From an uncultured Candidatus Saccharibacteria bacterium (GTDB lineage: Bacteria; Patescibacteriota; Minisyncoccia; Phycocordibacterales; PALSA-1337), in assembly GCA_964459225.1 (NCBI GenBank), contig CAYWKB010000001.1, positions 289,318 to 353,317 on the forward strand: DNA of 64,000 nucleotides, given 5' to 3'. Under the pieces are notes generated by a model, which was given only the letters and a program-made list of their open reading frames with translations, searched no databases and was not told the DNA's origin. Shown here piece by piece: positions 2,204 to 59,800 of the stretch. A program made the position numbers and the translations under genes. Position 1 is the first letter of the stretch; each line of letters begins with the position of its first letter.

Positions 2204-2521
2204 TCACTTTATCTTCGTAATAATCTGATACTCATCTTCGTATAGGATTTCACTTGGTCGATCAATCATAATCATATCTACCTTACCAATTACTACTGAT
2301 TTATGCCAATCCATAAGTCCAGATTCTCTGTATTTTTTAAGTCCTTTTTCTGTCCAAAATGATATTGCTCCAGGATACTTTTCTCCTATTTTTGGCAACC
2401 AAGATCCATCTGGTTTATTTAACCTTCTCAAGTCGTCTTTTGGGCAATCTTTTTCTACAGCTTCATATATTCCAATGTTGCCTACAATAAATCTATAAAG
2501 TTTTTCAACACTATTTCCCAT
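2204..2521 (-). CDS. hypothetical protein (start ambiguous; maximal ORF reaches 2632 and overlaps the secA 3' end)
   Basis: ORF immediately downstream of secA on the same strand. The internal Met at 2519-2521 gives an 11-nt overlap with the secA stop; no motif recognised. Confidence 0.35.
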   Translation of the reverse strand: MGNSVEKLYRFIVGNIGIYEAVEKDCPKDDLRRLNKPDGSWLPKIGEKYPGAISFWTEKGLKKYRESGLMDWHKSVVIGKVDMIMIDRPSEILYEDEYQIITKIK

Positions 2522-5018
2522 GACACTTTTTGTATTTTTTACCACTTCCGCAAGGACACGGGTCATTTCTTCCTGCCTCATCTTTTTTTGAAGATGCTCC
2601 ACCTTGATTTGTATTATTGTCGCCATCCCCACTTCCTATTATTTGAGCATTTTCGTGAACCTCTTTTAATTTAACTGGTTCTTGAGTAATTATTCCTCCT
2701 GCAATATGTGGTATTAGCTCTGCTATTTTTAGATTTATTGCATTTTGCATTTCTTTAAATAGTCTCAATCCTTCTTTTTTATATTCAACTAGTGGATCAC
2801 GCTGACCATATGCACGTAGATTTACACTAGATCTTGTATAATCCATTATCTCAAGATGTTCTACCCAATACATATCTATTGTTTGTAATATTATTTGCTT
2901 AGCAACAGTTAAAAATCTCTCCTTTCCAATTTGATTTATTTTGTCCTCGATTATTTTGTTCAAATCTGAAAAAATATGCGTAGATGCTATTTCCTTTATT
3001 TCTTTTTCTATTATATCCATTCCTCCCATCAATATTTCTCTTCGTCTTCCATACACTGTCTTCCTTTGATGATTTAATATGTCATCGTATTCCAAGATAT
3101 GCTTTCTTGAGTCAAAGTTATGTCCTTCGATTTTGGTCTGAGCTGTTTCGAGTGATCTTGTGATTATCTTGTTTTGTATTGGTTCATCTTCTGCAACCCC
3201 AAGTCTTCCCATCAAACTTTTGATAGTATCTGAAGCAAATATTCTCATTAGTGAATCCTCAAGAGAAACAAAAAACTGTGTTGCACCAGGATCTCCTTGT
3301 CTCCCTGAACGACCTCTTAGCTGATTGTCTATTCTTCTTGCCTCATGTCTTTCAGTTCCAAGTACAAACAGTCCGCCAATTGATTTGATTTCTTCATACA
3401 AATCTTTTGTACTAGGATTTCCGCCAAGTTTAATATCAACTCCACGACCTGCCATATTTGTTGCTATCGTCACTGCACCTCTTTTTCCTGCTTGAGCGAT
3501 TATTTCTCCTTCTCTTTCATGATTCTTGGCATTAAGTATTTCATGTTTTACTCCCTCTGCCTTTAAAAATTCTGAAAGGACTTCATTTTTTTCAATTGAA
3601 ACTGTACCAATCAAAACTGGTTGACCTGTTTTATTTAATTCCTTTACCTTTCTTGCTATTGCCTTAAACTTTCCGATTTCAGTTTGGAAAATCAAATCAT
3701 CATGATCCAATCTTTGTATTGTTTTATTTGTAGGAACGACAATAGTTTCTAATCCATATACCTTATAAAATTCCTCACTTGAAGTTGATGCTGTACCTGT
3801 CATTCCTGAAAGTTTTTTATACAATCTAAAATAGTTTTGGAAAGTAATAGATGCATAGGTACGAGATTCTTTTTGAACTGAAACTCCTTCCTTTGCCTCT
3901 ATTGCTTGATGAAGTCCATCTGACCAACGTCTTCCGGGCTGAAGTCTACCTGTAAATGTATCGACTATAACTATTTGATTATCTTTAACAACGTATTCAG
4001 AATTTAAATTATAAAGAGCCTTGGCCTTTACTGCAGTCTCCAAATGATGAACGTATTTGATTCCTTTTTCTGTATAAATATTTTCGACACCCAATTTCTT
4101 CTCGGCTTTTTCTATTCCTTTTGGTGTAAGACTTATATTTCTATTTTTTTCATCAACTGTATAATCTTCATCTTTATTAAATTCACGAACCATAATTGAA
4201 AATATTTGATATAGATTTTCGGAATCAGTTGTTGGTGCAGAAATGATAAGAGGAGTACGCGCTTCGTCTATAAGTATTGAGTCGATTTCGTCCACAATGG
4301 CATAGTTGAAATCTCTTTGACGTAGGGAAGATTCTTCGTATTCTAAATTGTCTCTAAGATAATCAAAGCCGAATTCATTGTTAGTACCATAAGTTATATC
4401 TGCCGAATACGCCTCTCTACGAGATACTGGCTTAAGGAATTCATGAACAACTTTAAATGATCCAAGTTCATCACGCTTTTTATCTAAATTTTCATCTGAT
4501 TCATTTGAAGAAATATGTTTTGGATCATATATAAAAGAAGTTTCGTGATTTATAACTCCAGTTGTAAGTCCTAGAAAATTATATATTTGTCCCATCCAAA
4601 CCGCATCACGTCTTGATAGGTAATCGTTTACAGTTACAACATGTACTCCTTTACCTGAAAGTGCATTCAAATATGCGGGAAGGGTAGCTACCAAAGTTTT
4701 TCCTTCACCTGTTCGCATTTCACCTATATTTCCATAATGTAAAATTGCACCACCTATTATCTGTACATCAAAATGTCTTTGACCAGAAACTCTCTTTGAA
4801 GCCTCGCGTACAACTGCAAATGCTTCAGGGAGTATATTGTTTAGTGATTCACCGCTTGAAATTCTTTTTTTGAATTCTTGAGTTTTATTTTTTAAAGCAT
4901 CGTCTGAAAGGGAAGAGATAGCAGTTTCAAATGAATTAACCTCAACTAAAATAGCCTCATATTTTTTGAGTAGTTTTTTATTATTATCACCAAAAATGTT
5001 TTTTAATGAAAACGCCAT
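2511..5018 (-). CDS. secA: preprotein translocase ATPase SecA
   Basis: 835 aa; DEAD-like motor motifs (GEMRTGEGKT, DEIDSILIDEARTPLIIS) and C-terminal zinc-binding tail CPCGSGKKYKKCHGK. Confidence 0.95.
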   Translation of the reverse strand: MAFSLKNIFGDNNKKLLKKYEAILVEVNSFETAISSLSDDALKNKTQEFKKRISSGESLNNILPEAFAVVREASKRVSGQRHFDVQIIGGAILHYGNIGEMRTGEGKTLVATLPAYLNALSGKGVHVVTVNDYLSRRDAVWMGQIYNFLGLTTGVINHETSFIYDPKHISSNESDENLDKKRDELGSFKVVHEFLKPVSRREAYSADITYGTNNEFGFDYLRDNLEYEESSLRQRDFNYAIVDEIDSILIDEARTPLIISAPTTDSENLYQIFSIMVREFNKDEDYTVDEKNRNISLTPKGIEKAEKKLGVENIYTEKGIKYVHHLETAVKAKALYNLNSEYVVKDNQIVIVDTFTGRLQPGRRWSDGLHQAIEAKEGVSVQKESRTYASITFQNYFRLYKKLSGMTGTASTSSEEFYKVYGLETIVVPTNKTIQRLDHDDLIFQTEIGKFKAIARKVKELNKTGQPVLIGTVSIEKNEVLSEFLKAEGVKHEILNAKNHEREGEIIAQAGKRGAVTIATNMAGRGVDIKLGGNPSTKDLYEEIKSIGGLFVLGTERHEARRIDNQLRGRSGRQGDPGATQFFVSLEDSLMRIFASDTIKSLMGRLGVAEDEPIQNKIITRSLETAQTKIEGHNFDSRKHILEYDDILNHQRKTVYGRRREILMGGMDIIEKEIKEIASTHIFSDLNKIIEDKINQIGKERFLTVAKQIILQTIDMYWVEHLEIMDYTRSSVNLRAYGQRDPLVEYKKEGLRLFKEMQNAINLKIAELIPHIAGGIITQEPVKLKEVHENAQIIGSGDGDNNTNQGGASSKKDEAGRNDPCPCGSGKKYKKCHGK

Positions 5019-25938: not shown

Positions 25939-26130
25939 ATGGAAAAAATAATCCAAGTAGAGGAATTTGAAGCCGATATGTCGGATGGCGAAGTGGCCAT
26001 TAGCAGTTCTGAGTCCGATTCGGCAATGACCGAGATTACAGACATCCAGTCTTTGTGGCTCGCTGTGTGCTACCCAGAATACATTGCTGGTAGGAATGCG
26101 CGGAAATTGCGCCATAAAAAAATCCCTTAA
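25939..26130 (+). CDS. small acidic hypothetical protein (63 aa)
   Basis: Very strong SD AAAGGAGGT 5 nt before the ATG; D/E/S-rich N-terminal two thirds; basic tail RNARKLRHKKIP; upstream hairpins; own terminator. Confidence 0.5.
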   Translation: MEKIIQVEEFEADMSDGEVAISSSESDSAMTEITDIQSLWLAVCYPEYIAGRNARKLRHKKIP

Positions 26131-26163
26131 ACACCCATAACCTAGTATGAAAAAAGACTAGAA

Positions 26164-26194
26164 AACACTTCGCTTCTGCGAGGTGTTTTTGTTG
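26164..26194 (+). terminator. Rho-independent terminator
   Basis: aacacttcgc-ttct-gcgaggtgtt (one G-U) then ttttgttg. Confidence 0.55.
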
Positions 26195-26228
26195 TATAAT
26201 AAAACAATTAATCTTTAATTTAATATAA

Positions 26229-26609
26229 ATGAATAGAGTTACACATTTTGAAATACAAGCTGATGATATTGAAAGAGCCACAAATTTTTATAGCGAAATT
26301 TTTAATTGGGAAATTAAAAAATGGGATGGTATGGAATATTGGATGGTGATGACAGCTCCAATGGATAGCACTGAAAGAGGGATAAATGGAGGATTATTAA
26401 AAAGGCCAGCGAATGTAAAAGAATTGCAAAAAGGCACAAATGCTTACGTATGTACAATTGAAGTTTCTGATTTTGATAATATTGCAGATAAAATATTAAA
26501 AGCGGGAGGAATTGTGGCTATGCCAAAATTTGATATAGGAGGTATGGCATGGCAGGGATATTTTATAGATACAGAAGGAAATACATTTGGATTGCATCAG
26601 AGGAAATAA
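26229..26609 (+). CDS. VOC/glyoxalase-bleomycin resistance family protein
   Basis: 126 aa; N-terminal VTHFEIQADDIERATNFYSEIFNWE typical glyoxalase-like fold. Confidence 0.72.
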   Translation: MNRVTHFEIQADDIERATNFYSEIFNWEIKKWDGMEYWMVMTAPMDSTERGINGGLLKRPANVKELQKGTNAYVCTIEVSDFDNIADKILKAGGIVAMPKFDIGGMAWQGYFIDTEGNTFGLHQRK

Positions 26610-26640
26610 AATTAGACCCACATTTCTTACGAATGGGGGT

Positions 26641-27201
26641 CTAAATGATTGTCTCCTTTTGGGAGACTTTACCGTCTTCATCTATTATGAGATTGGTTTG
26701 GTCATTGTTCCCAAAAAATCTCCAGAAATCATCTCGCTGTCTCCATGCTTTACCAAGAAATCTGAAATGATCGCAAGTACCTATCACCTTTATCCTTCCT
26801 TCTCTTGTTAAATAAAAATGATTAAAAGGGAAGGATAATGTTGTGTGTGTCTGAATTATGGGTAAATCCTCAGGATCGCTTACCCATTCAAACCCAACCC
26901 TCTTTCTTCTTATACTGAGAATTGTCTGCAATGGCCTACAATCCATTCTTTGCCAGGATATAAAATCCTTTCTGCTTTTAGGATAATTACCCTCATATGC
27001 CCAATTAAGATGAACGGTTATGATTTTACCAACACTATCTAAAACTGGTGCTTCTGAAAGTTCACCTCTCATTATATTTTTACCATGATTCATTTGAACT
27101 TGTATTGGTTTAAGTTCATTGAATAGTCTTTGTAATTCACATGGATCACGTTGGTCCTTGTGCAGACCTGTAATAGATCGCTTTTTGAACATATCTCTCA
27201 C
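26641..27201 (-). CDS. hypothetical protein (divergent from the LexA-box region)
   Basis: 186 aa; no motif recognised; start lies ~125 nt from the LexA box on the opposite strand. Confidence 0.5.
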   Translation of the reverse strand: MRDMFKKRSITGLHKDQRDPCELQRLFNELKPIQVQMNHGKNIMRGELSEAPVLDSVGKIITVHLNWAYEGNYPKSRKDFISWQRMDCRPLQTILSIRRKRVGFEWVSDPEDLPIIQTHTTLSFPFNHFYLTREGRIKVIGTCDHFRFLGKAWRQRDDFWRFFGNNDQTNLIIDEDGKVSQKETII

Positions 27202-27319
27202 CTCCTCTCAATTGTTAATTGTTTGTGCTGTTCGACGACATTATATCATCTAAATAATTTTCAAACAGTGATTTTTTGTGTTGTAATTGTATTTTATGCC
27301 AGTTATCCACAATATTTAA

Positions 27320-27348
27320 TTGCAGGTGAACGACTGTTCACTTATAAT
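27320..27348 (+). promoter_or_regulatory. LexA (Cheo-type) SOS box overlapping a sigma70-like promoter
   Basis: gtGAACgactGTTCac palindrome (GAAC-N4-GTTC) at 27326-27341, immediately followed by -10 TATAAT (27343-27348); -35-like TTGCAG 17 nt upstream. Confidence 0.55.
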
Positions 27349-27381
27349 ATAAATACATTAGAAATATTAATTTTTATAAAT

Positions 27382-27591
27382 ATGAGTAAAATACAATTAG
27401 CACAAAAAATTAGAAAAGAAATAAAAAAGTTAAACAGGGAAATAGATCTTAAGATTATAAAAGGTCTACCATACAAGGCAGAGGCAAGACGCCATAAGTT
27501 TCTAGTATCACAGTTTTATGGATTCTATGAAACTCAAAAGGCAAGTTGGTTCAAAAAGACGGTATACAGTTTGGCGAGCTTTATGTTATAA
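27382..27591 (+). CDS. small basic hypothetical protein (69 aa) in the LexA-box-driven transcript upstream of lexA
   Basis: ATG 34 nt downstream of the SOS-box promoter; MSKIQLAQKIRKEIKK...; ends 9 nt before the lexA ATG. No homolog recognised. Confidence 0.4.
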   Translation: MSKIQLAQKIRKEIKKLNREIDLKIIKGLPYKAEARRHKFLVSQFYGFYETQKASWFKKTVYSLASFML

Positions 27592-27599
27592 ATTATATA

Positions 27600-28166
27600 A
27601 TGATTGAGCAATATAAAAATAAAATATTTGATTTCTATGAAAGGAAAAAGAGAATGCCTAGTTATCAAGAGATAATGGGTATTCTTGGTTTTAAATCTAA
27701 AAATGCCGTTTACAAATTAGTTAACAAAATGATAGAAGCAGGATTAATTGAAAAGGATAGTAGCGGCAAGATATTACCAACAAATCTTTTTCAAGAAATT
27801 AAACTATTAGGACTAGTTGAGGCTGGTATACCTACTGTTGCAGAAGAGGAACCACTCGATACAGTTAATCTTGATAGTCTATTAATCAAAAACAGGGATT
27901 CATCTTATTTGCTTGAGGTAAAGGGAGACTCAATGATAGAGGAGGGTATAAAAGAGGGCGACATGGTAATAGTTGAAAGAAAAAGTGATGCAAAAGATGG
28001 AGACATTGTTATAGCTGAGGTTGATGGTGGATGGACAATGAAATATTTTAGGAAAAAGGGTAATAAAATATTTTTAGAGCCAGCAAACAAAAACTACAAA
28101 CCAATATATCCTGAAAATGATATGAAAATTGCCGCTATTGTTCGTGGTGTAATAAGGAAGTACTAA
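27600..28166 (+). CDS. lexA: SOS repressor LexA (start at MIEQYK...; maximal ORF from 27546)
   Basis: N-terminal wHTH, S24 peptidase domain with catalytic GDSM and KxDG(D); cleavage-site-like VEAG. Confidence 0.85.
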   Translation: MIEQYKNKIFDFYERKKRMPSYQEIMGILGFKSKNAVYKLVNKMIEAGLIEKDSSGKILPTNLFQEIKLLGLVEAGIPTVAEEEPLDTVNLDSLLIKNRDSSYLLEVKGDSMIEEGIKEGDMVIVERKSDAKDGDIVIAEVDGGWTMKYFRKKGNKIFLEPANKNYKPIYPENDMKIAAIVRGVIRKY

Positions 28167-28223
28167 TTAAACACAATTTGATTATTAGCAAAATTCAAAA
28201 AATATGTTAGTATTCAAGGCATT

Positions 28224-28769
28224 ATGAAACATTCACATTTCCATATTATCCCACAGGATAAGGCACCAAAAATATTAAATTTAATAGTTGAGATTCGTCA
28301 GGGTGAGTCAAATAAATATGAGTATAATAAAGATTATGGAATTATAGAGCTCGATAGAGTTCTTTATGGTCCTATGTATTATCCGGTAAACTATTGTGAT
28401 GTTCCATCTACATGGAATGAAGGTGATAATGATCCACTCGATGCTGTTGTATTTAGTACGCATCCTATTGTACCTGGCGCTATGGTACGTGGTCGTGTTA
28501 TCGGTATTATGGAAATGATAGATAATGGTGAAGAAGACTATAAGATTATTTGTGTAAATAACAAGGATCCTAGATTTGATCATATCAATCATGTAGATGA
28601 GCTCGCTCCATATGATAGGAAGGATATACAAACATTTTTTGAAACGTACAAAATACCTCAGACAGGTCCAGGGACAGTAAAGATTGGTAAATTCCATGGT
28701 CCAGAAGTTGCCTATGAACATATCAAAAAGGCAATGGAGGTTTATGAAAAAAAGTTTAAGACAAATTAA
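28224..28769 (+). CDS. ppa: inorganic pyrophosphatase (family I)
   Basis: 181 aa; EIRQGESNKYEY, DNDPLDAVV, IDNGEEDYKII metal-binding motifs. Confidence 0.9.
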   Translation: MKHSHFHIIPQDKAPKILNLIVEIRQGESNKYEYNKDYGIIELDRVLYGPMYYPVNYCDVPSTWNEGDNDPLDAVVFSTHPIVPGAMVRGRVIGIMEMIDNGEEDYKIICVNNKDPRFDHINHVDELAPYDRKDIQTFFETYKIPQTGPGTVKIGKFHGPEVAYEHIKKAMEVYEKKFKTN

Positions 28770-28936
28770 TTTATATTTTGTCTTGATCACAATTTCCTTC
28801 TAGTCAATTAAATACAATGCTTAAAATATTAAATTTTACATTATGGTTAATTGCAGCACCCTTTGTACTATTTGGAGTCTTTATTGCTGTATCTGTTTTT
28901 CCTAAATGGGAAGAATGGGGTAAGGATTTCTAAAGT

Positions 28937-30355
28937 GTGATAAAATTCCTCCACATGCAGATAAACATATCACCTACAACTTTTATTATTCTCGGTATAA
29001 CTGGTGACTTGGCGGGTAGGAAATTATTGCCGGCATTACTTAGTCTTTATGTAAACAAGGAATTACCAAGTAAATTTGCTATTGTGGGTTTTTCAAGAAG
29101 GTCATTTACTCGTGAGGAATTCCGGGATTTTATTCGTACCCATATGAATATTAAGCCAGGGCAATTCCGTGAAGAGGACGTTAAGCATTTTATCGATCAC
29201 ATATATTATGAGCAGGGGAATTTTGATACCGCTTCTTCATATGCACAATTAGCACAGAGATTGAGAAATATCGATGATAATTTCAAGCAATGTTCAAATA
29301 AGCTTTTCCATTTATCTACACCGCCATCTCTCTATGAATCTATTTTTATTCATTTGCATAATTCTGGTTTAACAATACCTTGTGGTGGTAATGAAGGATG
29401 GACTCGAATATTAGTTGAAAAGCCTTTTGGAAATGATATTGAAACTGCAAAAAAGTTAGACAAAAAATTAGCAGAGCTCTTTGATGAAAGTCAGATATTT
29501 AGAATAGATCACTATCTCGCAAAAGAAGCATTGCAAAATATCATTTCGTTCCGTTTCTCTAATTCACTTTTTGAGCCTTTATGGAATAAAAATCATATAG
29601 ACAAAGTTCATATCAAATTAGTTGAAAAAATAGGGGTTGGAAGTCGTGGTGCTACATATGATTCTATCGGTGCTTTAAAAGATGTTGGACAAAACCATGT
29701 ATTACAAATGCTTGCCCTCATAGCTATGGAGACACCAAAGGCATTTGATGCAGAGAATATAAGAAAGGAGAGGGCAAATGTTTTAAAAAATCTAGTAACT
29801 ATTAATTCAAAAAATGTATCATCAAGTATTGTTCGTGGACAATATGAGGGATATAGGCATGAAATGGGTGTTAAAGAGCATACACAAACAGAAACGTATT
29901 TTCGGCTAGAGTCATATATAGATAATAAAAGATGGAAAGGCGTACCATTTTTTCTTGAAAGTGGAAAAGAAATGTCAGAAACAAAAGCTGAGATAAATAT
30001 TTATTTCAAAGACACATCAAATATAGAGGGATTGGGAGATGATAGACAAAATATCTTAACTTTCAGAATTCAACCTGATGAAATGATTAAAATAAGATTT
30101 TGGGTTAAGACACCAGGCTTTACAATGAATACTGAACCAAAGACATTAAAGTTTAAATACAGCGACTTTCAATCACAAGCGACTTTACCAGATGCTTATG
30201 AGAGGGTAATATATGATGCAATACTTGGCGATCAAACTTTGTTTACAAGTACCGATGAAGTTATATACGCATGGAAATACATAACTTCAATTATTAATAA
30301 TTGGAATTCTGTACCACTTACAATATACAAAAAGGGTACAGCAATAGTAATTTAA
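28937..30355 (+). CDS. zwf: glucose-6-phosphate 1-dehydrogenase
   Basis: 472 aa; NADP-binding ILGITGDLAGRKLLPAL and active-site RIDHYLAKE. Confidence 0.85.
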   Translation: MIKFLHMQINISPTTFIILGITGDLAGRKLLPALLSLYVNKELPSKFAIVGFSRRSFTREEFRDFIRTHMNIKPGQFREEDVKHFIDHIYYEQGNFDTASSYAQLAQRLRNIDDNFKQCSNKLFHLSTPPSLYESIFIHLHNSGLTIPCGGNEGWTRILVEKPFGNDIETAKKLDKKLAELFDESQIFRIDHYLAKEALQNIISFRFSNSLFEPLWNKNHIDKVHIKLVEKIGVGSRGATYDSIGALKDVGQNHVLQMLALIAMETPKAFDAENIRKERANVLKNLVTINSKNVSSSIVRGQYEGYRHEMGVKEHTQTETYFRLESYIDNKRWKGVPFFLESGKEMSETKAEINIYFKDTSNIEGLGDDRQNILTFRIQPDEMIKIRFWVKTPGFTMNTEPKTLKFKYSDFQSQATLPDAYERVIYDAILGDQTLFTSTDEVIYAWKYITSIINNWNSVPLTIYKKGTAIVI

Positions 30356-30367
30356 TTTTATAATAAA

Positions 30368-30595
30368 ATGTTTCAAAACTTTTTACTTAAGACAATGCTT
30401 AAAAAGCAATTAAAAGGATTACCTGAAGACGAGCAAAATAAGATTTTTAATATGATAGAAAAAAACCCAGACTTTTTTATGAAAATCGCCACAGAAGCAC
30501 AAGAAAAAATAAAGGGAGGTATGAATCAGCAAGATGCAATGATGGCAGTAATGAAAAATCACGAAACAGAGCTAAGGGAAGTGATGGGCAAGTAG
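30368..30595 (+). CDS. small hypothetical protein (75 aa, Met/Lys-rich)
   Basis: Intact ORF with no recognisable domain. Confidence 0.4.
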   Translation: MFQNFLLKTMLKKQLKGLPEDEQNKIFNMIEKNPDFFMKIATEAQEKIKGGMNQQDAMMAVMKNHETELREVMGK

Positions 30596-35792: not shown

Positions 35793-36962
35793 ATGATATA
35801 TATTGTTATATATAACTCATTAGATGCAGCGGGTGGGGTAGAGAGAGTGGCGGCAAATATATTAAAAAATTTACCACACAACTTTGAAACAAGCAAGATA
35901 ACTGTTTTGTGTACTGATAATAAATTAGAAAGACATTTCTATTACAATAAATTTAAATGTGTAAATATATATGTTCATAAGTTCAAAATACTAGAAAAGA
36001 TATTTAGATTATCTAGAATTATTTATTCTTTTAAAATTTTATTTTTTATTTTAAGAAATATTAAGGATAATGATATTGTTCACTTTCATGGTTATGAATA
36101 CACGTTTGCGACAAGAATTTTTAGGTCGATAATTAAGAGGAAATTTACTTTATTAGTCACCATCCATGGATCATTTTATGATGCTCATACAAAATACACC
36201 GTGCAAAACCTACCAAATAGATTTATTCCAGTAAAAATATTATTTTATTTTTTTAGATTCTATTTCTTTATTATTGAAAGATTTTTTGCTAATAATATAG
36301 ATTACTACGTATTCATTACTGAATATCTGAAAGATTTTTATTTTAAAACATATAAAATCAATAGACGTTATTCTATAATTAATAATGGATTATACCTTAA
36401 TTCTCGTAAATACAAAATAAATTATGGAATTGATGAAACCGTACGATTTGTAATAGTAGGCTCATCTTTTTATGGTAAGGGTTTAGATGTAGCGTTAGAG
36501 TCAATAAAGAGATTATATAATAAAGGCTTCAATGTAGAACTAAATATTATTGGATTTCATAGTGATAAAAGACGTATTGAGAAACACGACTCAAAGTATA
36601 TAAAATATTTTGGTCAAGTCGATTCCGGATTAGTGTCCATGATATTGAGTGAATGCGATATACTAGTATTTCCAAGTAGGAACGAAGGTTTTCCGTTGGC
36701 AATTTTAGAATCAATTAGTTGTGGATTACCAGTAATCGTGAGTAAGGACTCAAAATTTTCGGAACTTAATGATAATCAAATGATGGGTATAATTGTTAGG
36801 GATTATAAGATTGATAATTGGGTTGATTGCATGAAATTTATGATTAATAATATCGATTATTATAAGAATAATATTAAAAATTATGATTTTTCAAGATATT
36901 TGTGGCTGGGGGTGTCAAAAAAATATTTAGATATTTACATAAACTTTCATGAAAATAATTAA
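35793..36962 (+). CDS. family 4 (GT-B) glycosyltransferase
   Basis: NEGFPLAILESISCGLPVIVS signature. Confidence 0.75.
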   Translation: MIYIVIYNSLDAAGGVERVAANILKNLPHNFETSKITVLCTDNKLERHFYYNKFKCVNIYVHKFKILEKIFRLSRIIYSFKILFFILRNIKDNDIVHFHGYEYTFATRIFRSIIKRKFTLLVTIHGSFYDAHTKYTVQNLPNRFIPVKILFYFFRFYFFIIERFFANNIDYYVFITEYLKDFYFKTYKINRRYSIINNGLYLNSRKYKINYGIDETVRFVIVGSSFYGKGLDVALESIKRLYNKGFNVELNIIGFHSDKRRIEKHDSKYIKYFGQVDSGLVSMILSECDILVFPSRNEGFPLAILESISCGLPVIVSKDSKFSELNDNQMMGIIVRDYKIDNWVDCMKFMINNIDYYKNNIKNYDFSRYLWLGVSKKYLDIYINFHENN

Positions 36963-38892
36963 AGATAAATTTGGGTATATAATTCTCGGTATCTTTCTAG
37001 TAAAGCTCTTTTTACTTACATGGTCTGCTCACCCGTTCGATTTTTGGGCATTTGTAAATACAATTCAAAGAAACACATTATATGGTTGGAATGTATTTGA
37101 ATCATGGAATAAGGGGAATATAATAATACTTTTATGGTACCCGCTATATTCATTATACTTAGTAATGTTACAAATTACACACAGTGTAATCGATAATATT
37201 TTATTGTTACACCTTTTTTTCAAATTACCTTTTTTACTGGTTGATTTGGTGTCAGCATTTTATATCTATAAAATAATATTATGTTATACGAATAATCAGT
37301 CTATTGCCAAGAAAAGTTTTATGATCTGGTTTACAAATCCAATCGTATTTTACACATACGGAATACATGGTCATTATGAAATACTTGTTGCTCTGTCTAT
37401 TATATTAATAATTTACGGACTTATTAATAAATCGGTAATCTATTTATGTATCGGTTTAATTTTGGGTATCGAGACAAAATATTTCTTCATTATATTTTTA
37501 CCATTTATAATTATATATTTTTTAAGTCAAAAAAGAATAAAGGATTTGTTTTTTTTGGTATTTCTTACTTGTATGGGGCTACTTTTATCTTTTATTCATG
37601 TCTTCTTTAATCCAATATTATTTACTCAGATAATTAATTCAATAAATAATTTATCCAAAATCAATAATCAGCAAGTTTTTCAGGTGTTAAAAATGCCTGC
37701 AACAAATATATTCTCATCAATTAATTACTTATTTAAACCACTAATGCCAATTAATAATATAGATAATGAATTGTTATTCAAAGTAGCTTCTAATGGATTA
37801 ATGATTGTTGCTCTTATTTTATTAGTACATATTATTTTTAGAGTAGTAAGAATATTTATTTATTCAATTAATTATAGTAATACAATTATTATAAAAGATA
37901 TATTTATCTCATTGTGTTATTTACTAGTATTTCTATCTAGTTTCCAGTTGCATTATATGATTTGGCTAATTCCCTTTCTAATTTTCTACTGTGTTATAGA
38001 TAATAATAATATCCTGATCTATTTATTTGTATTATTAACAGTTGTGGGTACGATCCTTTCCTTCAGGGGAGAGCTGGGTACTTATACTTTTTTCCTTGAC
38101 CTACTTAATAATCAGAGCATCGAACTATTCTCTCTTTCAAGTAGATATTTGGCTATTGTATATAGAGAAGGTATGCTTATTATTTTTACTATAATTTTAT
38201 CTGCTATGTATATAATTTATGATGGCATGCAAAAAAAATATCATATCATAAATAAAACTACTGGTTATAATGTTTATGTTATATATCTTGGTATTTCTAT
38301 AATTTTGTGGGTAATTATTATAATTCCATATATACAAATTTTTAGATTATATATTCATCAAAAAAATCATCAAACAGAATTAGCATATAGTAGAATAAGC
38401 AATATTAATAGAGGTTTTATCTCTGCTACTTATAAATTTTCTCATATAAATGATAATAAGATTTACTTTGATGATCATAATTCAACAATCTTCTACGGGG
38501 TCAAAAAATTAGACCCATTTAATAAGAATAATTTTTCAATAAATATTATTCTCCCATTAGATAATGGTTATAGTATAAAAAGAGAAGTATTTTTTAACGA
38601 ATGCCCCGTAAATTACCATAAAAATGATGAAACTGAAATGTTAGAGATTTACTCATCAATCGATTGTTTAAAATCAGAGAATAACTATATCAGCAATATA
38701 TATGATTACCCGCAGTTAGATAGATTGAAAATTACCGTTAAAAATCATGAAGTCGATTATGTCTACTCACCAAGTATGAAGTATGTGGTAATACTCATGT
38801 CCCTGTTAGGAATATTGTATATAATAATGTCTATTTATATTATATATAGTATAGTAATGTCAGTTTCCTCATCTAAAAATAAGATAAATTAA
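36949..38892 (+). CDS. large polytopic membrane protein, possible GT-C-fold glycosyltransferase (N-terminal multi-TM, C-terminal soluble domain)
   Basis: 647 aa; ~12 hydrophobic helices then ~200-aa hydrophilic domain; context in a glycosylation operon. Family assignment by architecture only. Confidence 0.4.
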   Translation: MKIIKDKFGYIILGIFLVKLFLLTWSAHPFDFWAFVNTIQRNTLYGWNVFESWNKGNIIILLWYPLYSLYLVMLQITHSVIDNILLLHLFFKLPFLLVDLVSAFYIYKIILCYTNNQSIAKKSFMIWFTNPIVFYTYGIHGHYEILVALSIILIIYGLINKSVIYLCIGLILGIETKYFFIIFLPFIIIYFLSQKRIKDLFFLVFLTCMGLLLSFIHVFFNPILFTQIINSINNLSKINNQQVFQVLKMPATNIFSSINYLFKPLMPINNIDNELLFKVASNGLMIVALILLVHIIFRVVRIFIYSINYSNTIIIKDIFISLCYLLVFLSSFQLHYMIWLIPFLIFYCVIDNNNILIYLFVLLTVVGTILSFRGELGTYTFFLDLLNNQSIELFSLSSRYLAIVYREGMLIIFTIILSAMYIIYDGMQKKYHIINKTTGYNVYVIYLGISIILWVIIIIPYIQIFRLYIHQKNHQTELAYSRISNINRGFISATYKFSHINDNKIYFDDHNSTIFYGVKKLDPFNKNNFSINIILPLDNGYSIKREVFFNECPVNYHKNDETEMLEIYSSIDCLKSENNYISNIYDYPQLDRLKITVKNHEVDYVYSPSMKYVVILMSLLGILYIIMSIYIIYSIVMSVSSSKNKIN

Positions 38893-40146: not shown

Positions 40147-40644
40147 ATGTTAAATAAGTTCAGAACTTATGCCTATAAATATAGGCTAGAGGCAATACTT
40201 CTAGTTATTCTATGCTTATTTTTGTTTATTGAGCAGGTAAATAGTTATTTGCTATCAATTTATTTGTTGTCTTATTTTGTGATTGTCGCTTTTCTTAATA
40301 ATGAATATTTGCAAAAGGGAGTTCTTAAGGGTTTTTTTGATATTAAAAAAGAAAGAAGGTATCTATATCTTTATTTGATATTTTTATCTCTATCTATTGT
40401 ATGGGGTTTAAGTATTAATGCTATTGTATTTTTATCTATTTTTATTTTATTTGCTCTGTATGACTGGGACAGTAGGATCACTGCATTTCTGGCAATTGCT
40501 ATGCTCATTGGTTGCGTGGTTTTTATGTTAATGAATATGGACAATTATGCTGAGATTTGTGCTGAATATGTATACTATCTACTTGTTATTACTATTTTTT
40601 TACAAATTATCGAATACAAAAAGTTTCCAAATAAATTTAAATGA
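40147..40644 (+). CDS. hypothetical membrane protein (4 TM)
   Basis: 165 aa, hydrophobic. Confidence 0.4.
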   Translation: MLNKFRTYAYKYRLEAILLVILCLFLFIEQVNSYLLSIYLLSYFVIVAFLNNEYLQKGVLKGFFDIKKERRYLYLYLIFLSLSIVWGLSINAIVFLSIFILFALYDWDSRITAFLAIAMLIGCVVFMLMNMDNYAEICAEYVYYLLVITIFLQIIEYKKFPNKFK

Positions 40645-42284
40645 TTAAATCTAAAATAAATCATTATTTAATATTTACTTTCACCACTATTTTGCTTATT
40701 GTTATCCCTTGGATTGGTAATGGTTATCTACTAACTTTGGATATGGTATTTGGCACACATATTGATGTTTATGGTGGTCATTCGGGCATTACTAATAATT
40801 TACTTTTATATGATGTCTTAAATGTTATCAGTAATACTCTCGGTGGTGTATTTACCCAAAATTTTTTAATTATTTTAATATTCTTTTTTATTATATTTTT
40901 CCCACTTATCTTTTTCTCTAAGATCTTTAAAAATATTAATACAAATGGAGCAGAGTATGCTGTGTCTTTATTGTATACTTTTAATCCTTTCGTTTATGAA
41001 AGATTTTTAGCCGGTCACTGGATGGTCCTATTTGGTTACTCTCTTTTATTTCCTATTTTCTATTATTTTATTGAATTATATAGGGAATATAATATAAAAA
41101 AGATTTTTGTCTTGGCATTACTCATTTCAATTTTGAGTTACATTTCAATTCATACATTTACTATTGTGATTGTAATTACTTTTATTACTACTTTATACTA
41201 CTTCATCTTTAATAAAAATATTATTGAAACTCTTAAAAAGATTTCTATTCTAGCTTTGTCTTGCTTGGTATTATGTAGTTTTTGGTTAATTCCTATGTTT
41301 AATAATAAAAGTAGTAATATTGATAATTTTGATAATAGGCATTGGGAAGTGTTTAAGACAACTGGTGATAATGGTTTTGAGACAATTTCTAATATTGTCT
41401 CACTAAGAGGATTTTGGTTAGAAAGGGAGGTTTGGAGTGAAAGGTTTGTAATGCAAAATAGTTTATATTATAAAATTATATTTTTACCTGTACTTTTAAT
41501 TATTATTTATGGTGTCTATAATGGTGTTAAAAATGAAAGTACTAAAAAAGTTTCTAAAATACTTTTGCTTTTGCTGTCTATTGCAATAATATTTTCGTCT
41601 GGTATCGCTCCTGGTATTTTTAAAAATATTAATTATTGGTTATTTGAAAATATTGGATTTTGGAAGGGATTTAGAGATACTCAAAAATGGTCATCTATAA
41701 TTGCTATTATTTATTCATTATATTTTGGTCTTGGTATCTCTGGTCTTTTAACTAAGTACGACAAATACTTTAATCGGGGTATTTTATTGAGTATTTTTAT
41801 TTTATTACCTATTTTATATACCCCTAGTATGCTATTTGGCTTTTCAAATCAATTAAAAACAGTAAATTACCCAGATTCTTGGTATGAGGTAAATGAAATA
41901 ATTAAAGGTGAGGTAAATTGTAGAGCACTTTTTCTGCCTTGGCATCAATATTATGAATTAAAATTTAATAATAGTATTTTGACCGGTAATATTTCTAGGA
42001 ACTTTTTTGATTGTGATATCTTGCATGGTAAAAATATGGAATTAGGAAATATTAAAAGTCAGGGAGGTAATGGTGATGAGTATAATGAACTTGAGACAAT
42101 AGTTATAGATAATAATTTAAATAAAGATAGAGGTGTAGAAAAGTTAAAGAAATTTAATATTAAATATATTATCTTTACGGATGATATTATGAGCCTTGAT
42201 GAGTACTATTATCCTTTTTTGGATTCATTTTTAATTAAAGAAATCTATAAAAAAGACGGTATTTACTTGTTTAAAGTAATCTGA
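40641..42284 (+). CDS. large polytopic membrane protein (possible second GT-C-like enzyme)
   Basis: 547 aa; multi-TM N-terminus plus C-terminal soluble domain; translationally coupled to the upstream gene. Confidence 0.4.
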   Translation: MIKSKINHYLIFTFTTILLIVIPWIGNGYLLTLDMVFGTHIDVYGGHSGITNNLLLYDVLNVISNTLGGVFTQNFLIILIFFFIIFFPLIFFSKIFKNINTNGAEYAVSLLYTFNPFVYERFLAGHWMVLFGYSLLFPIFYYFIELYREYNIKKIFVLALLISILSYISIHTFTIVIVITFITTLYYFIFNKNIIETLKKISILALSCLVLCSFWLIPMFNNKSSNIDNFDNRHWEVFKTTGDNGFETISNIVSLRGFWLEREVWSERFVMQNSLYYKIIFLPVLLIIIYGVYNGVKNESTKKVSKILLLLLSIAIIFSSGIAPGIFKNINYWLFENIGFWKGFRDTQKWSSIIAIIYSLYFGLGISGLLTKYDKYFNRGILLSIFILLPILYTPSMLFGFSNQLKTVNYPDSWYEVNEIIKGEVNCRALFLPWHQYYELKFNNSILTGNISRNFFDCDILHGKNMELGNIKSQGGNGDEYNELETIVIDNNLNKDRGVEKLKKFNIKYIIFTDDIMSLDEYYYPFLDSFLIKEIYKKDGIYLFKVI

Positions 42285-54152: not shown

Positions 54153-54404
54153 ATGTCAGACAAAATATCGGTTGTGGTTAAACAAATAGTTAGGGATGTT
54201 CGTACTCCCTACGTGGTCACAGTGCCTCAGGTGGGTCAAAACCTCTCTGGTATCAGGGCTGGTGACACTATAACTTTTACCCTTAGCATATGGGACGGAG
54301 ATGAGCTTTTTGCTGATCAGGTACTGTCGCTCGAAAGGTCGAAGGTTGTGAGGAGCCAAAAAGGATTCCGTTGTACGGGAGGCATTTCTTCTGTGAGTAT
54401 CTGA
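54153..54404 (+). CDS. small hypothetical protein (83 aa) at the start of the higher-GC segment
   Basis: Intact ORF with elevated GC; no SD; no motif. Confidence 0.3.
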   Translation: MSDKISVVVKQIVRDVRTPYVVTVPQVGQNLSGIRAGDTITFTLSIWDGDELFADQVLSLERSKVVRSQKGFRCTGGISSVSI

Positions 54405-54445
54405 AAAATAGAAACAAGAAAAAAGAAAAGAGAAAGAGAAATAGA

Positions 54446-55717
54446 ATGAAAGAAGCTAAGAAATCTTCGGTTATCACGACTAAAATCTCCGATTTAAATG
54501 AGGAATTCTTTGTAAGAGTTTCCTTGAACCAGGAGAGGGTCAATTTTTTGGCCGGCTTACTTGTTAATGAAACAGTACTCGATCCAATCGAGATTTCCAT
54601 GTTGGAGGGTAAGTTGGTTGTTGTTGATGGTAGGCATAGGGTGGCAGCAAATTCGGCGGTTGGCAATCATGAGGTTGAGTGTACTGTCTTAGAATTTGAC
54701 AGTAAAGCGTCTATGATTTCATATGCCTTTTTGAAAAACTCTGGCGGTTCATTACAAGCTACATCAGCTGACGCACTTCATGTCATAAGGGTTCTTTTGT
54801 CTGAAGGACTGAGGCATAGAGAAGTTGTTGCGCAACTATCGAAATCAGGTAGTTATTCACCAAGAACCATTCAAAAATGGGTCAAAGATGTATCCACTGA
54901 GAATTACAGGAAATCCTTGAGGGATGCTGTGAGGCATATTTCAGAGGGTAAGACTGTTGATCAGGCCTCTGAGCTTACTGGGTTAAAAAAAGAGCAAATT
55001 CAGAGGGGGTTAAATCCATCTGCTTTTGCTCCTTTGGGTGGCGGGCCTGCTGATAAGTTGAAGGGAAAGGTTTCTACCGAGTTCCACCGTTTCAATCTAT
55101 CTCTTGGTCAACATTCCAACTCACTAACAAGGGAAGTTAATTCTGGGTTGATTACTCCGGAACAAGCCAGGGGCATTATTGCCGAATGGGGTCGTAGGGT
55201 TTCAAATGTTCAAAAGCAATTTGCTAATACTCAGGCGAGATTATCAAAGGTGCTTGAGATCTATGAAAATCTTGGACACACACAATTAGCTCGAGTTGAA
55301 CCGGGTCCTACTAGGACGAAACATAACACTGATCATGGGGCAAACCATTCAGACACCACACCTAACGGTGGTATGGCTGTAAAAAAGCCAGTCAAGGTAT
55401 TAACACCATCTCAAATCAAGAAGACTGATGAAGTCTTCAGAAAGATGGGTATCTCACCTAAAGATCACAAAAAGATCACAGAGGAAGAGTTTGTTCTGAG
55501 GGCGATCAGGGAAATCAGGAAGGGTACTGAATTTCCTGGTATTCATACTGTGTTCACAGGGTTTAATGATGCGTTTCGACGGTATTTTGGTGACGGATCA
55601 AACCCGGTTGAGGCAATCACCAAACTCAGGGATGATGGAAAAATATTCATCATGGTTTCAAGAAAGGGTTCGGTAATCAATCTCGCTGAAGACAGAAAGG
55701 ATAAGTCAAACAGCTGA
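54446..55717 (+). CDS. ParB/DndB-like nuclease-domain protein (DGRHR motif), orphan (no ParA)
   Basis: LDPIEISMLEGKLVVVDGRHRVAANSAVG ParB-N/DGQHR-like motif; 423 aa from MKEAKK; elevated GC (~45%). Confidence 0.55.
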   Translation: MKEAKKSSVITTKISDLNEEFFVRVSLNQERVNFLAGLLVNETVLDPIEISMLEGKLVVVDGRHRVAANSAVGNHEVECTVLEFDSKASMISYAFLKNSGGSLQATSADALHVIRVLLSEGLRHREVVAQLSKSGSYSPRTIQKWVKDVSTENYRKSLRDAVRHISEGKTVDQASELTGLKKEQIQRGLNPSAFAPLGGGPADKLKGKVSTEFHRFNLSLGQHSNSLTREVNSGLITPEQARGIIAEWGRRVSNVQKQFANTQARLSKVLEIYENLGHTQLARVEPGPTRTKHNTDHGANHSDTTPNGGMAVKKPVKVLTPSQIKKTDEVFRKMGISPKDHKKITEEEFVLRAIREIRKGTEFPGIHTVFTGFNDAFRRYFGDGSNPVEAITKLRDDGKIFIMVSRKGSVINLAEDRKDKSNS

Positions 55718-56774: not shown

Positions 56775-56808
56775 ATCACCATTCCGGAGACGGGGTGGTG
56801 ATTTTTTA
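56775..56808 (+). terminator. Rho-independent terminator (family member 2; homolog of 55741-55777)
   Basis: atcaccattccg-gaga-cggggtggtgat with U-G pairs at the same two positions, then tttttt; abuts the dnaE stop. Confidence 0.55.
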
Positions 56809-59800
56809 TACCAAAACCTTTACATTATCTATCAAAATACTTTTCTGACCATTTCTTTCTGATACCTTTCCTTTTACCGCCAGACATTTATCAGCCACAA
56901 ATGCAATTTTAAATTGTGCTAGGACTTTTGGAAATACTACTGTATCTATTTCACCTGTAAAATCTGAAACCTTTACAAATGCCATTGCATCTCCTTTTTT
57001 TGTGTTCAAGGATCTTATTTCTGTAACTATACATGCAATCATAACTTCTGTTCCATCTTTTAATTCTTCCTTTAATTTTTTTATATTCATGTCTCGCTTT
57101 TGTATTGTCTCTCTGTATTTATCTAGTGGATGTCCGGAAATATACAATCCTAAAAGCTCTTTTTCCCATGCTAACTTTTCTTTTACATCTGCATTTGGTA
57201 CTTCTTCGAGTTTTAGACTTGGCAGGGTAGATGAATCTGACATTAATCCCCACAGTGAATCTTGATTATCTGCCTGCTTTCCTTTTTCTTTATTATATGC
57301 GAGTAATGTTTCGATATTTCCAAGTAATAGTCCTCTATCATGTCCAAAACTATCCAATGCTCCTGCTTTTATTAGTGCTTCTAATGATTTTTTATTTAGA
57401 TTTTTGTCCTTTACTCTGTCTAGGAAATCCACCAAAGATGTAAATCTTCCACCACGCTTCCTCTCTTCAATTATTGCTGTTGAAATTCCTTGACCAAAGT
57501 TTTTGATTGTTACTAGTCCGAAGCGGATGGTGTCTTTCGGCTCGGGAATAGTGTCTCCTCCTGGCCCTGCGAAACTCGCTTCGCTATCGCTACGCTCAGA
57601 CAGTCCTCGGGCCATCGAAGACACTATTCCCGAGCCTTTGACCACCGTAAACTGACTAAAACTTTCATTTATATCGGGTGGAAGTATGGGAATATTCATT
57701 CTTTTACATTCACCGATTATTTCTGCTATTTTTTCTACATCACCTGCATCTGCTGTAAGTACGGCTGACATATATATAGCAGGGAAATTTGCTTTCATAT
57801 ATGCAGTTTGATATGCGACTAATCCATAACTCGCGGCATGGGACTTATTAAATCCGTAAGCAGCAAAGGGCTCAATTAATTTCCAAAGTGTATTGGCATC
57901 TTTTTTCTTCATTCCATTTTTTACTAGTCCGGACATAAGCTTTTCTTTTTGCTCTTCCATTTCTTTTGGAATCTTTTTTCCCATTGCCTTACGTAGCTTA
58001 TCTGCCTCAAGCCATGAATATCCTCCAAGCTTAATAGCAATCATCATAACGTCATCCTGATAGGTTATAACTCCATAAGACATGTCCAAAATATCTTTCA
58101 TTCTTGGATCCAAATACTCTATTTTTGAATTATCATGCTTTCGTTCTATATATTGAGGAATTGATTCTAGTGGTCCTGGACGATATAGGGCTACCATGGC
58201 GTTTATGTCGTGTATTCTTGATGGCTTTAGATCAACTAGGAATTTTGTCATACCAGTTCCATTTAGCTGGAACACTCCTGTTGTTTCTCCACGAGCCAAC
58301 ATTTCAAATGTCTTTGTATCGTCTCTTGGTATATTTTCAATATCAATTTCAATATTTTCTATTTTCTTTACTCTATCTACCGCATCGGCAAGTATTGAAA
58401 GATTTTTGATTCCCAAAAAGTCGAATTTCAAAAGTCCTACACCGTCTTCACCGACTGCATGCATATCATATTGGGTGATGATTTTTTTGACTGGATTTCC
58501 ATTTGCGTCTTCTTTGCTTTTGGTATCGTATTGAAGTGGTACAAATTCGGTCAGTGGTTCAGGAGCAATAACAACACCGGCAGCGTGAACAGAAATGTGT
58601 CTTGCACAGCCTTCTATTTTTTTTGCCATGTCTATTATTTTTCGTGTATCTTCTTCTTTTTCATACGCTTCTTTTAATTCTGCTACTTCAGTTAGAGCAC
58701 GATCAATAGTCATGGGGAAACCTTGCGCACCAAGAGGAATGAGTTTTGATATTCTATCTGCAACTGCGTACTCATATCCCATAGCACGTGCAATATCACG
58801 CACAGCACCTTTTGCCATCATAGTTCCAAATGTTCCTATTTGCGCCACATGATCATGGCCATACTTTTTTCTTGCATAATCAATAACCTCATCTCGTCTA
58901 TTATCGGCAAAGTCCATATCGATATCGGGAGCTGACGGTCTTTCGGGATTTAGAAATCTTTCGAAGGGAAGTTTAAAGGCAAGCGGATCTACATTTGTAA
59001 TTCTTGTTACATAAGTTGTAAGTGAGCCGGCAACGGAACCTCGAATATTTGTAAGTATTCCATTTTCATGTGCGTATTTTAAAAGATCAGATACCACTAG
59101 GAAATACTGCGCATATCCCTTATCTTTTATAACTTTTAATTCATATTCAAGTCTATCCACAACTTCCTTACTCATTTCCAAACCTCTTTTCGGTATTCCT
59201 TCATATGCCAATCTTTTTAATTCGTCATCATGAGATAGGCCACTTTCAACAATAAATTTTGGAAAATACCATTTACCTAATGTTAATTCTAGATTGCATT
59301 CATTTGCGATTTTCACAGTATTGTCTAGCGCTTCGGGAATATCTCGGAAAAGTTCTTCAGCCTTTTCACTTGAAATAAATGAAAAATCTTCTTCATTTTC
59401 ATCACCATTAATATTTGTATTTGATGAATTCCTATCTGACATATCGCCTGCAGTGTTAACAAGTGTTAGCATTTCACGAGCAGATCTATCATCTGAATTT
59501 ATATAGTAAACATCTTGTCCAGCTACTATTTGTGTATTTGTTTCTTTTGCTAATTTGATTAATTGTTGCATTAAACCTTCATGACCTTGTATTTCATTAT
59601 GTCTTGTTATTTCAATATAAAAATTATCAGCGCCGTATACTTTTTTATAATATTCAATATGTTCTTTTGCTTTTTCTACATTTTTATTTTTCAATGCTGT
59701 TGAAATTTCACTAGAAAAAGAAGGAGCAATACAAATCAAATCAGAATTATATTTTTCTATTAATTCTCTATCAATACGAGGCTTATAATAAAATCCTTCA

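Follow-up and report, generated by a model that had tools for sequence, protein, structure and literature searches.

A small gene precedes lexA in a predicted LexA-autoregulated operon with a DnaA-box-like promoter element in the class Paceibacteria

Autoregulation of lexA is textbook knowledge, and the targets of each lineage's LexA tell how that lineage survives DNA damage. What does LexA control in an uncultured, genome-reduced Patescibacterium, and what is the gene of unknown family that stands between the promoter and lexA? These questions are raised by a 64-kb stretch of contig CAYWKB010000001.1 (positions 289,318 to 353,317), here called the window, in which a small open reading frame (ORF) for a basic protein of 69 amino acids directly precedes lexA. 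Comparison with relatives shows the locus, as read from its motifs and gene order, to be a chromosomal bicistronic lexA operon of a Patescibacterium of the class Paceibacteria (Parcubacteria group). We consider this architecture, together with LexA autoregulation, very probable. Our reading of the whole, to which we give a probability of about 0.5, is that of a LexA-autorepressed, probably DnaA-modulated operon whose first product would be a stress-induced, protein-binding effector.

The promoter can be read on the forward strand as a -35 hexamer TTGCAG (27320 to 27325) and a -10 hexamer TATAAT (27343 to 27348) separated by 17 nucleotides (nt). Between them lies the predicted LexA operator, with the core GTGAAC-GACT-GTTCAC (27326 to 27341) inside the extended palindrome AGGTGAAC-GACT-GTTCACtT (27324 to 27343). 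The first-pass annotation of this DNA had described a LexA box fused to a promoter, followed by a 69-amino-acid basic ORF and then lexA, and this description holds. The operator takes up the whole of the -35/-10 spacer and, as the extended palindrome, overlaps both hexamers. The small ORF was placed correctly on the forward strand at 27382 to 27591 (ATG at 27382, TAA at 27589 to 27591) and is conserved. The second gene, of 188 codons, lies at 27600 to 28166 on the same strand and was rightly called lexA, as described below. That lexA closely follows the small ORF was also correct; the intercistronic spacer, which contains no Shine-Dalgarno sequence, is 8 nt long (27592 to 27599, forward strand) and not 9.

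Taken alone, the GAAC-N4-GTTC motif is not significant, since it occurs once in the window against 0.48 occurrences expected and at least once in 36 of 100 shuffles. The 16-mer GTGAAC-N4-GTTCAC, with at most one mismatch allowed, was found once against 0.05 expected, and no further 16-mer site with two or fewer mismatches was found in the window. The promoter was not listed by a simple promoter scan of the window, because TTGCAG agrees with TTGACA at only three of six positions. Known leader RNAs and riboswitches were ruled out by an Rfam scan of positions 26000 to 29000, which returned nothing significant.

The conservation of this arrangement was examined in three samples of related loci. 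The species sample comprised 50 loci, one genome per species, picked by the small gene and drawn from Taylor-, Nomura- and Giovannonibacteria, Paceibacterota and Minisyncoccia. The metagenome sample comprised 56 loci picked by distant members of the small-protein family, with a narrow alignment as the query, and the third comprised 3 loci picked by LexA instead of the small gene. Several of the related loci originate from the Hainich groundwater sites. The lexA gene lies directly 3' of the small gene, on the same strand, in 50 of 50 species loci and likewise in all 46 metagenome loci with enough downstream DNA; the loci picked by LexA carry the small gene upstream in 3 of 3 cases. GAAC-N4-GTTC stands upstream in 47 of 47 species loci with upstream DNA (46 perfect; one mismatch in L004), in perfect form in 55 of 55 such metagenome loci, and in 3 of 3 loci picked by LexA. 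Over the first two samples, every one of the 102 promoters for which upstream DNA exists carries the site, 101 of them in perfect form and one with a single mismatch. When 48 relatives were aligned, the -35 hexamer read TTGC(A) or TTGAC and the -10 hexamer TATAAT or TATACT, with the palindrome in between. The arms of the palindrome are kept and the central N4 is free to vary, as expected of a protein-binding site. The palindrome is beyond chance as a candidate operator, and the decisive evidence is comparative: it occupies the same promoter position in every relative examined.

The boundaries of the conserved unit were also apparent from these loci. Genes flanking the module are housekeeping genes that differ from locus to locus, and no relatives of the small protein were found among 2.9 million viral contigs. 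The unit is therefore chromosomal and consists of only the promoter, the small gene and lexA. Within it, the whole layout of upstream motif, -35 hexamer, operator, -10 hexamer, small gene and lexA is retained in about 100 independent relatives. Searches for additional LexA sites in 554 kb of related loci gave only chance-level matches with two mismatches, so no regulon can be defined beyond the lexA operon. One related locus carries a degenerate second operator and -10 hexamer (GTGAAGGACCGTTAAC ttataat; L014, 2941 to 2956) between its intact operator and the ATG, as if the promoter had once been duplicated in tandem and the second copy had since decayed.

The product of the second gene has the features of a LexA repressor. 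It scores 128.5 bits against the TIGR00498 equivalog, for which the cut-off is 110.95, with residues 12 to 187 covered, and it matches Peptidase_S24 with an E value of 9.6e-29. The Ala75-Gly76 cleavage site, Ser111 and Lys148 are invariant in 32 LexA orthologues (174, 175, 210 and 247 in the fusion numbering). The N-terminal region, where LexA has a winged-helix DNA-binding domain, is divergent by the measure of its profile score, because LexA_DNA_bind (PF01726) reaches only 15.6 bits against a cut-off of 23.7. The TIGR00498 alignment begins at residue 12, and the N-terminal segment FKSKNAVYKL is nearly invariant.

The Gram-positive-type (Cheo/DinR) SOS box has the consensus CGAAC-N4-GTTCG. 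The system described here shares with it the GAAC-N4-GTTC core, within a palindrome of 16 to 20 bp that overlaps lexA's own promoter, and, as in Gram-positive-type systems, the repressor is of the S24 type and predicted to cleave itself at an Ala-Gly bond by means of a Ser/Lys dyad. It differs in the flanks of the box, which read (AG)GTGAAC...GTTCAC(CT), the core flank being invariably T/A instead of C/G. In gene order and promoter structure it differs too: lexA comes second, after the small gene, the spacer is filled exactly by the operator, and an extra conserved element lies upstream.

The small gene has a clear coding signature. Its homologues form 84 clusters, nearly all of exactly 69 amino acids, and an exhaustive profile search collected 340 clusters at 50% identity, exclusively of short proteins. 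The entropy at codon positions 1, 2 and 3 is 0.72, 0.44 and 1.50, and as many as five synonymous codons are in use for invariant residues. Together, the entropy pattern and the synonymous turnover indicate that the gene is coding and under purifying selection. The first-pass annotation had entertained the possibility that the ORF is not conserved in relatives; the 84 clusters, the 50 of 50 species loci and the coding signature decisively contradict it. Its proposal of an uncharacterised small protein within the SOS regulon, upstream of lexA, gains support from the conserved operator and gene order. Judged by this context, the small gene is real and a putative, uncharacterised DNA-damage-response gene, because about 100 relatives keep the layout of operator, small gene and lexA. 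Gene models for the family are not always accurate. In P0138, P0175 and P0225, and in a window ORF at 27151 to 27591, gene callers stretch the small ORF upstream through the operator, so that N termini such as ...GERTFTYN... are the translated LexA box and -10 hexamer; cluster P0020 bears the spurious Joint Genome Institute name "DNA polymerase elongation subunit (family B)."

The two cistrons are tightly arranged in relatives as well. The distance from the stop codon of the small gene to the lexA start is mostly 4 to 10 nt, or the two overlap as ATGA, and no ribosome-binding site intervenes. Close or overlapping cistrons without a ribosome-binding site point to translational coupling, which suggests that translation of lexA is coupled to that of the small ORF. 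One could suppose that the ORF is a mere coupling leader of lexA, which starts 8 nt past the stop and has no Shine-Dalgarno sequence. The pair could also belong to a prophage or mobile element as its repressor module instead of being the SOS regulator of the host, as phages commonly carry S24 repressors and the LexA C-terminal domain has PHROG matches. Strong purifying selection on the amino acids, accompanied by synonymous turnover, is unexpected of a pure leader, however, and LexA scores above a curated equivalog cut-off. The housekeeping neighbours differ between loci, and relatives are missing from the viral contigs. The selection, the TIGR00498 score and the viral-contig result effectively exclude both ideas. 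Two related loci deviate in spacing, with a conserved ORF of about 54 amino acids (MTKNKILYSQNGFHKFR...) between the small gene and lexA (L045, 3440 to 3604; L049, about 3270 to 3430); this insertion widens the gap to 365 to 534 nt. In L112, a PemK-family toxin gene (2066 to 2449) begins 2 nt past the lexA stop.

The likely 5' end of the transcript can be placed by comparison. Transcription is inferred to start at A27355, 7 nt past the -10 hexamer, and this position is supported by relatives in which the ATG of the small gene lies exactly 7 nt past the -10 hexamer, the pattern of a leaderless mRNA. That distance is found in 7 of 48 species loci (L036, L040 to L043, L045 and L048) and in metagenome loci L075 and L092, among others; L060 is the same contig as L036. 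In the nine loci L036, L040 to L043, L045, L048, L075 and L092, the distance from GAAC to the ATG is 27 to 28 nt, and their mRNAs are apparently leaderless. The remaining loci, including the window, have A/T-rich leaders of 20 to 90 nt without a Shine-Dalgarno sequence; the predicted 5' untranslated region in the window is 27 nt long (27355 to 27381, forward strand).

Upstream of the -35 hexamer lies an element that was absent from the first-pass annotation. The 9-mer TTATCCACA, which matches the DnaA-box consensus, is located at 27303 to 27311 on the forward strand, ends 8 nt 5' of the -35 hexamer and is centred near -48 relative to the predicted transcription start. The exact sequence has a single copy in the window, at the lexA-operon promoter. 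It is present in 91 of 91 distinct related promoters (9 of 9 positions in 74, 8 of 9 in 17), always in the same orientation, and the best match in a control region reached merely 4 to 6 of 9 positions. The distance from its start to GTGAAC is 22 to 26 nt in 79 promoters, 33 to 36 nt, one helical turn further, in 9, and 15 to 17 nt in 3. TTATCCACA is most economically read as a single high-affinity DnaA box, and we see roughly even odds that DnaA provides an input to the promoter through it. DnaA and LexA boxes in one promoter region, with joint control, have a precedent in Escherichia coli uvrB (PMC6015884). Unlike at uvrB, the putative box described here is one consensus copy that keeps a fixed, phased distance to a lone operator; it stands at lexA itself and is conserved throughout the class. 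In the literature searched, no paper joining a DnaA box to a lexA promoter was found.

TTATCCACA also stands elsewhere in the related loci. In L112 (about 2495 to 2547, reverse strand), with an equivalent in L113, the sequence reads TTATCCACA-N5-TTGACA-N17-TATAAT followed by GGACAGTTGGCTTCGGCC, and this downstream sequence contains no called ORF and has no Rfam match. In L003 (4776, forward strand) and L020 (4767, forward strand), the 9-mer lies upstream of a 103-amino-acid gene without a Pfam match. TTATCCACA may mark a small regulon.

A different reading of the element makes the small basic protein itself the DNA-binding regulator of TTATCCACA, so that the operon would encode two regulators of its own promoter. 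The family's isoelectric point (pI) of about 10.5, the cluster of K, R and H near the tip of the hairpin described below, and the joint occurrence of motif and gene in every locus, with orientation and phasing fixed, are all compatible with this idea. A 9-of-9 match to the DnaA-box consensus nevertheless makes DnaA the simpler binder. Small helical DNA-binding proteins usually work on repeats as dimers, but the motif lacks symmetry and occurs singly. Pfam and Foldseek revealed no known DNA-binding fold, and the motif is found at other promoter-like sites too. Recognition of TTATCCACA by the small protein is improbable.

The small protein was then characterized from its sequence and predicted structure. 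Its pI is 10.2 in the window and 10.5 on average in the family, whose invariant core is LN..ID.KII.G..Y..EA.RHK.L. AlphaFold2 predicts an antiparallel two-helix hairpin, with helices at residues 3 to 27 and 32 to 68 joined by the loop GLPY, at a confidence score (pLDDT) of 86. Foldseek searches with this model found generic hairpins only. As the first-pass annotation had stated from the letters alone, the protein lacks similarity to known families: no match was obtained in Pfam or NCBIfam (E ≤ 0.1 for both), PHROGs or a sequence profile search of the PDB. The window protein ends in ...ASFML, and across 140 family members the C terminus is conserved as [AS][ST]F[VLMI][LF]-COOH.

This tail bears on a further reading, in which the protein would be induced by SOS and, like TisB, HokE or DinQ, act on membranes as a toxin or persistence peptide. 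Such peptides come to mind for a small, putatively LexA-controlled ORF with a hydrophobic C terminus. However, the uncharged run at the C terminus has a median length of 10 residues in the 140 members, which is too short for a membrane span, and no hydrophobic run of transmembrane length was found. The other 55 or so residues form a highly charged, strongly conserved hairpin that is predicted to be soluble, and constant co-translation with an essential repressor fits a toxin poorly. We regard a toxin as very improbable.

These features suggest the following model. By occupying the spacer between the two hexamers, a LexA dimer would shut out RNA polymerase, as in classical autorepression. Upon DNA damage, RecA-stimulated self-cleavage at Ala75-Gly76 would free the promoter, and a single mRNA from this one sigma-70-type promoter would yield the small protein and new LexA by coupled translation. 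Repression would return as LexA builds up again. DnaA bound near -48, where helical phasing is kept, would add an input from replication status to the lexA-operon promoter. The small basic hairpin would be the SOS payload of the operon and would bind another conserved protein; its deep conservation argues for a conserved binding partner. The hydrophobic C-terminal pentapeptide may act as a docking, turnover or membrane tag.

What the payload might do can be approached through known systems. SOS division inhibitors of monoderms (yneA, sosA, chiZ and divS) are encoded beside lexA and are nonhomologous between lineages. Like YneA of B. subtilis, SosA of S. aureus, ChiZ of M. tuberculosis, DivS of C. 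glutamicum and the inhibitor of the Pseudomonas aeruginosa lexA-sulA operon, the protein described here is small and lineage specific, is encoded next to lexA and is predicted from the operator motif to be LexA controlled; in Pseudomonas, the inhibitor is likewise in the same operon as lexA. The first-pass annotation had already pointed to such inhibitors, and the likeness is one of position only. Bacillus subtilis Sda is a 46-amino-acid helical hairpin that is expressed from a DnaA-box-dependent promoter and removed via its C terminus. The AlphaFold2 model shares with Sda a very small antiparallel two-helix hairpin, and the promoter and protein share the (putative) DnaA box and the C-terminal tail. 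On these analogies, we tentatively favor, at a little below even odds, a transient cell-cycle checkpoint protein that would block division or new initiation and would be an analogue, not a homologue, of SulA, YneA and Sda. The checkpoint role is favored because lineage-specific SOS division inhibitors of monoderms are characteristically lexA linked and because hairpin, DnaA box and C-terminal tag come together much as they do in Sda. In the full proposition, one promoter would receive two cell-cycle signals, with LexA reporting DNA damage and DnaA the status of the replication initiator, and would thereby control a class-wide, previously unknown hairpin checkpoint protein. This proposition is unlikely to hold in every part.

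The close bond with lexA is also what would be expected of an accessory of LexA or RecA, such as a corepressor that keeps LexA on its DNA or a factor that tunes cleavage stimulated by RecA. Binding of S24-family repressors by small proteins is known from two cases: gp7 of phage GIL01 and DdrR of Acinetobacter are about 50 to 80 amino acids long, are encoded or coregulated with an S24 repressor and bind that repressor (PMC4551915, PMC11332147). As an accessory, the small protein would resemble these or, functionally, DinI and RecX, and it would be made stoichiometrically with LexA from one mRNA. No examined locus breaks the linkage to lexA, the two reading frames overlap or are almost contiguous, and lexA lacks a separate ribosome-binding site. 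The polar residues E13, N18, D22, Y31, E34, R37 and H38 are conserved about as well as LexA itself, and the charge of the basic hairpin is opposite to that of the acidic C-terminal domain of LexA (pI 5.07). Yet the operator is a perfect, strong palindrome that does not obviously need a helper, whereas gp7 and DdrR both aid weak or atypical operators; moreover, gp7 is phage borne, and DdrR occurs only in Acinetobacter, where its gene is oriented divergently from umuDAb. A PHROG match, expected of a gp7 relative, was not found, and the small protein has no relatives on viral contigs (DdrR was outside this comparison). The sharing of the only local LexA-controlled promoter would also explain the adjacency. 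An accessory function is the main rival to the checkpoint reading, if somewhat unlikely.

Returning to the DnaA-modulated operon with a checkpoint-like effector, we note several observations that weigh against it. The protein contains neither a transmembrane segment nor a LysM domain, unlike YneA, SosA, ChiZ and SidA, and is instead a predicted soluble, basic hairpin. It has no sequence similarity to lexA-linked division inhibitors, SulA (PF03846) included, or to Sda: there was no Pfam Sda match, and hhalign gave a probability of 0.5% with an Sda sequence. The targets of Sda are sporulation kinases, and its charge is acidic or neutral, whereas the protein described here is basic and additionally lexA linked and, on motif evidence, LexA controlled. 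The gene differs from lexA-linked division inhibitor genes in lying 5' of lexA with apparent translational coupling rather than divergently, and it is unusually conserved; its core is far better conserved than is usual among division inhibitors. Synthesis alongside LexA, at a ratio of 1:1 or higher, is just as expected of a LexA partner. The C-terminal tail is more amphipathic than shuffled sequences by a modest margin only (0.34 versus 0.24; standard deviation, 0.12). As for the upstream element, each promoter has one lone TTATCCACA box instead of a cluster, and the 9-mer also stands before a few other promoter-like sequences in related loci; it may be the site of a more general factor. Binding by LexA and by DnaA is inferred purely from motifs and conservation.

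The neighborhood of the operon was surveyed in the window and in related loci. The first-pass annotation had reported a divergent gene of 186 amino acids beside the operon. An ORF of that length with a GTG start does exist (26641 to 27201, reverse strand); its translation probably starts at the ATG at 27192, behind a strong GGAGGTG Shine-Dalgarno sequence, and yields 183 amino acids (26641 to 27192). This 183-amino-acid ORF has no Pfam, NCBIfam or PHROG match. Apart from a homologue at 32% identity in L004, the closest relative, and a weak match in L008, the related loci lack it, which rules the gene out as a part of the conserved module and marks it as an orphan. About 2 kb 3' of lexA, the window carries an ORF of 66 to 75 amino acids (30368 to 30595, forward strand; ...KGLPEDEQNKIFNMIEKNPDFF...), the homologues of which lie immediately 5' of the small-gene/lexA pair in L112 (817 to 1017) and L113 (774 to 1001); it is a further conserved small protein that recurs near the operon. 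The window is otherwise ordinary chromosome and encodes DnaE, a Type ISP restriction-modification enzyme, SecA and HisRS; the ORFs listed for this content are at 56806 to 60132 (reverse), 60271 to 63402 (forward) and 2511 to 5018 (reverse). No LexA box was found upstream of the DnaE gene in the window, and the large ORFs at 36949 to 38892, 40641 to 42284 and 54371 to 55717 have no Pfam match. Searches for recA and dnaA in the window and the related-locus DNA gave no matches.

Part of this picture may already be on record. Sanchez-Osuna, Barbe and Erill reportedly analyzed the LexA network of Patescibacteria in 2017. A 2017 analysis of the Patescibacteria SOS/LexA network is cited in two later papers (PMC7739468, PMC8565304). 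The operator motif, and possibly the small ORF, may have been noted there. With that paper excepted, the literature searched yielded no description of the small-protein family, its fold or the DnaA-box-like element. The promoter itself resembles a classical, autoregulated lexA promoter of the Gram-positive type, and its operator is a flank variant with GTGAAC in place of CGAAC.

An uncultured, genome-reduced class of bacteria thus keeps one unknown protein of 65 to 70 amino acids as the first cistron of its lexA operon and ties it to lexA more faithfully than any known SOS effector is tied. In the candidate phyla radiation, where a checkpoint or LexA-accessory function is missing, the protein is a concrete and easily synthesized candidate for it. 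The phased DnaA-box-like element suggests a direct link between replication status and the SOS switch at lexA itself. If the full proposition with both signals and the checkpoint role is true, the small protein would do for the candidate phyla radiation what SulA, YneA or Sda do elsewhere, and it may be the main or only SOS payload of these minimal genomes, halting division or re-initiation in ultrasmall episymbionts.

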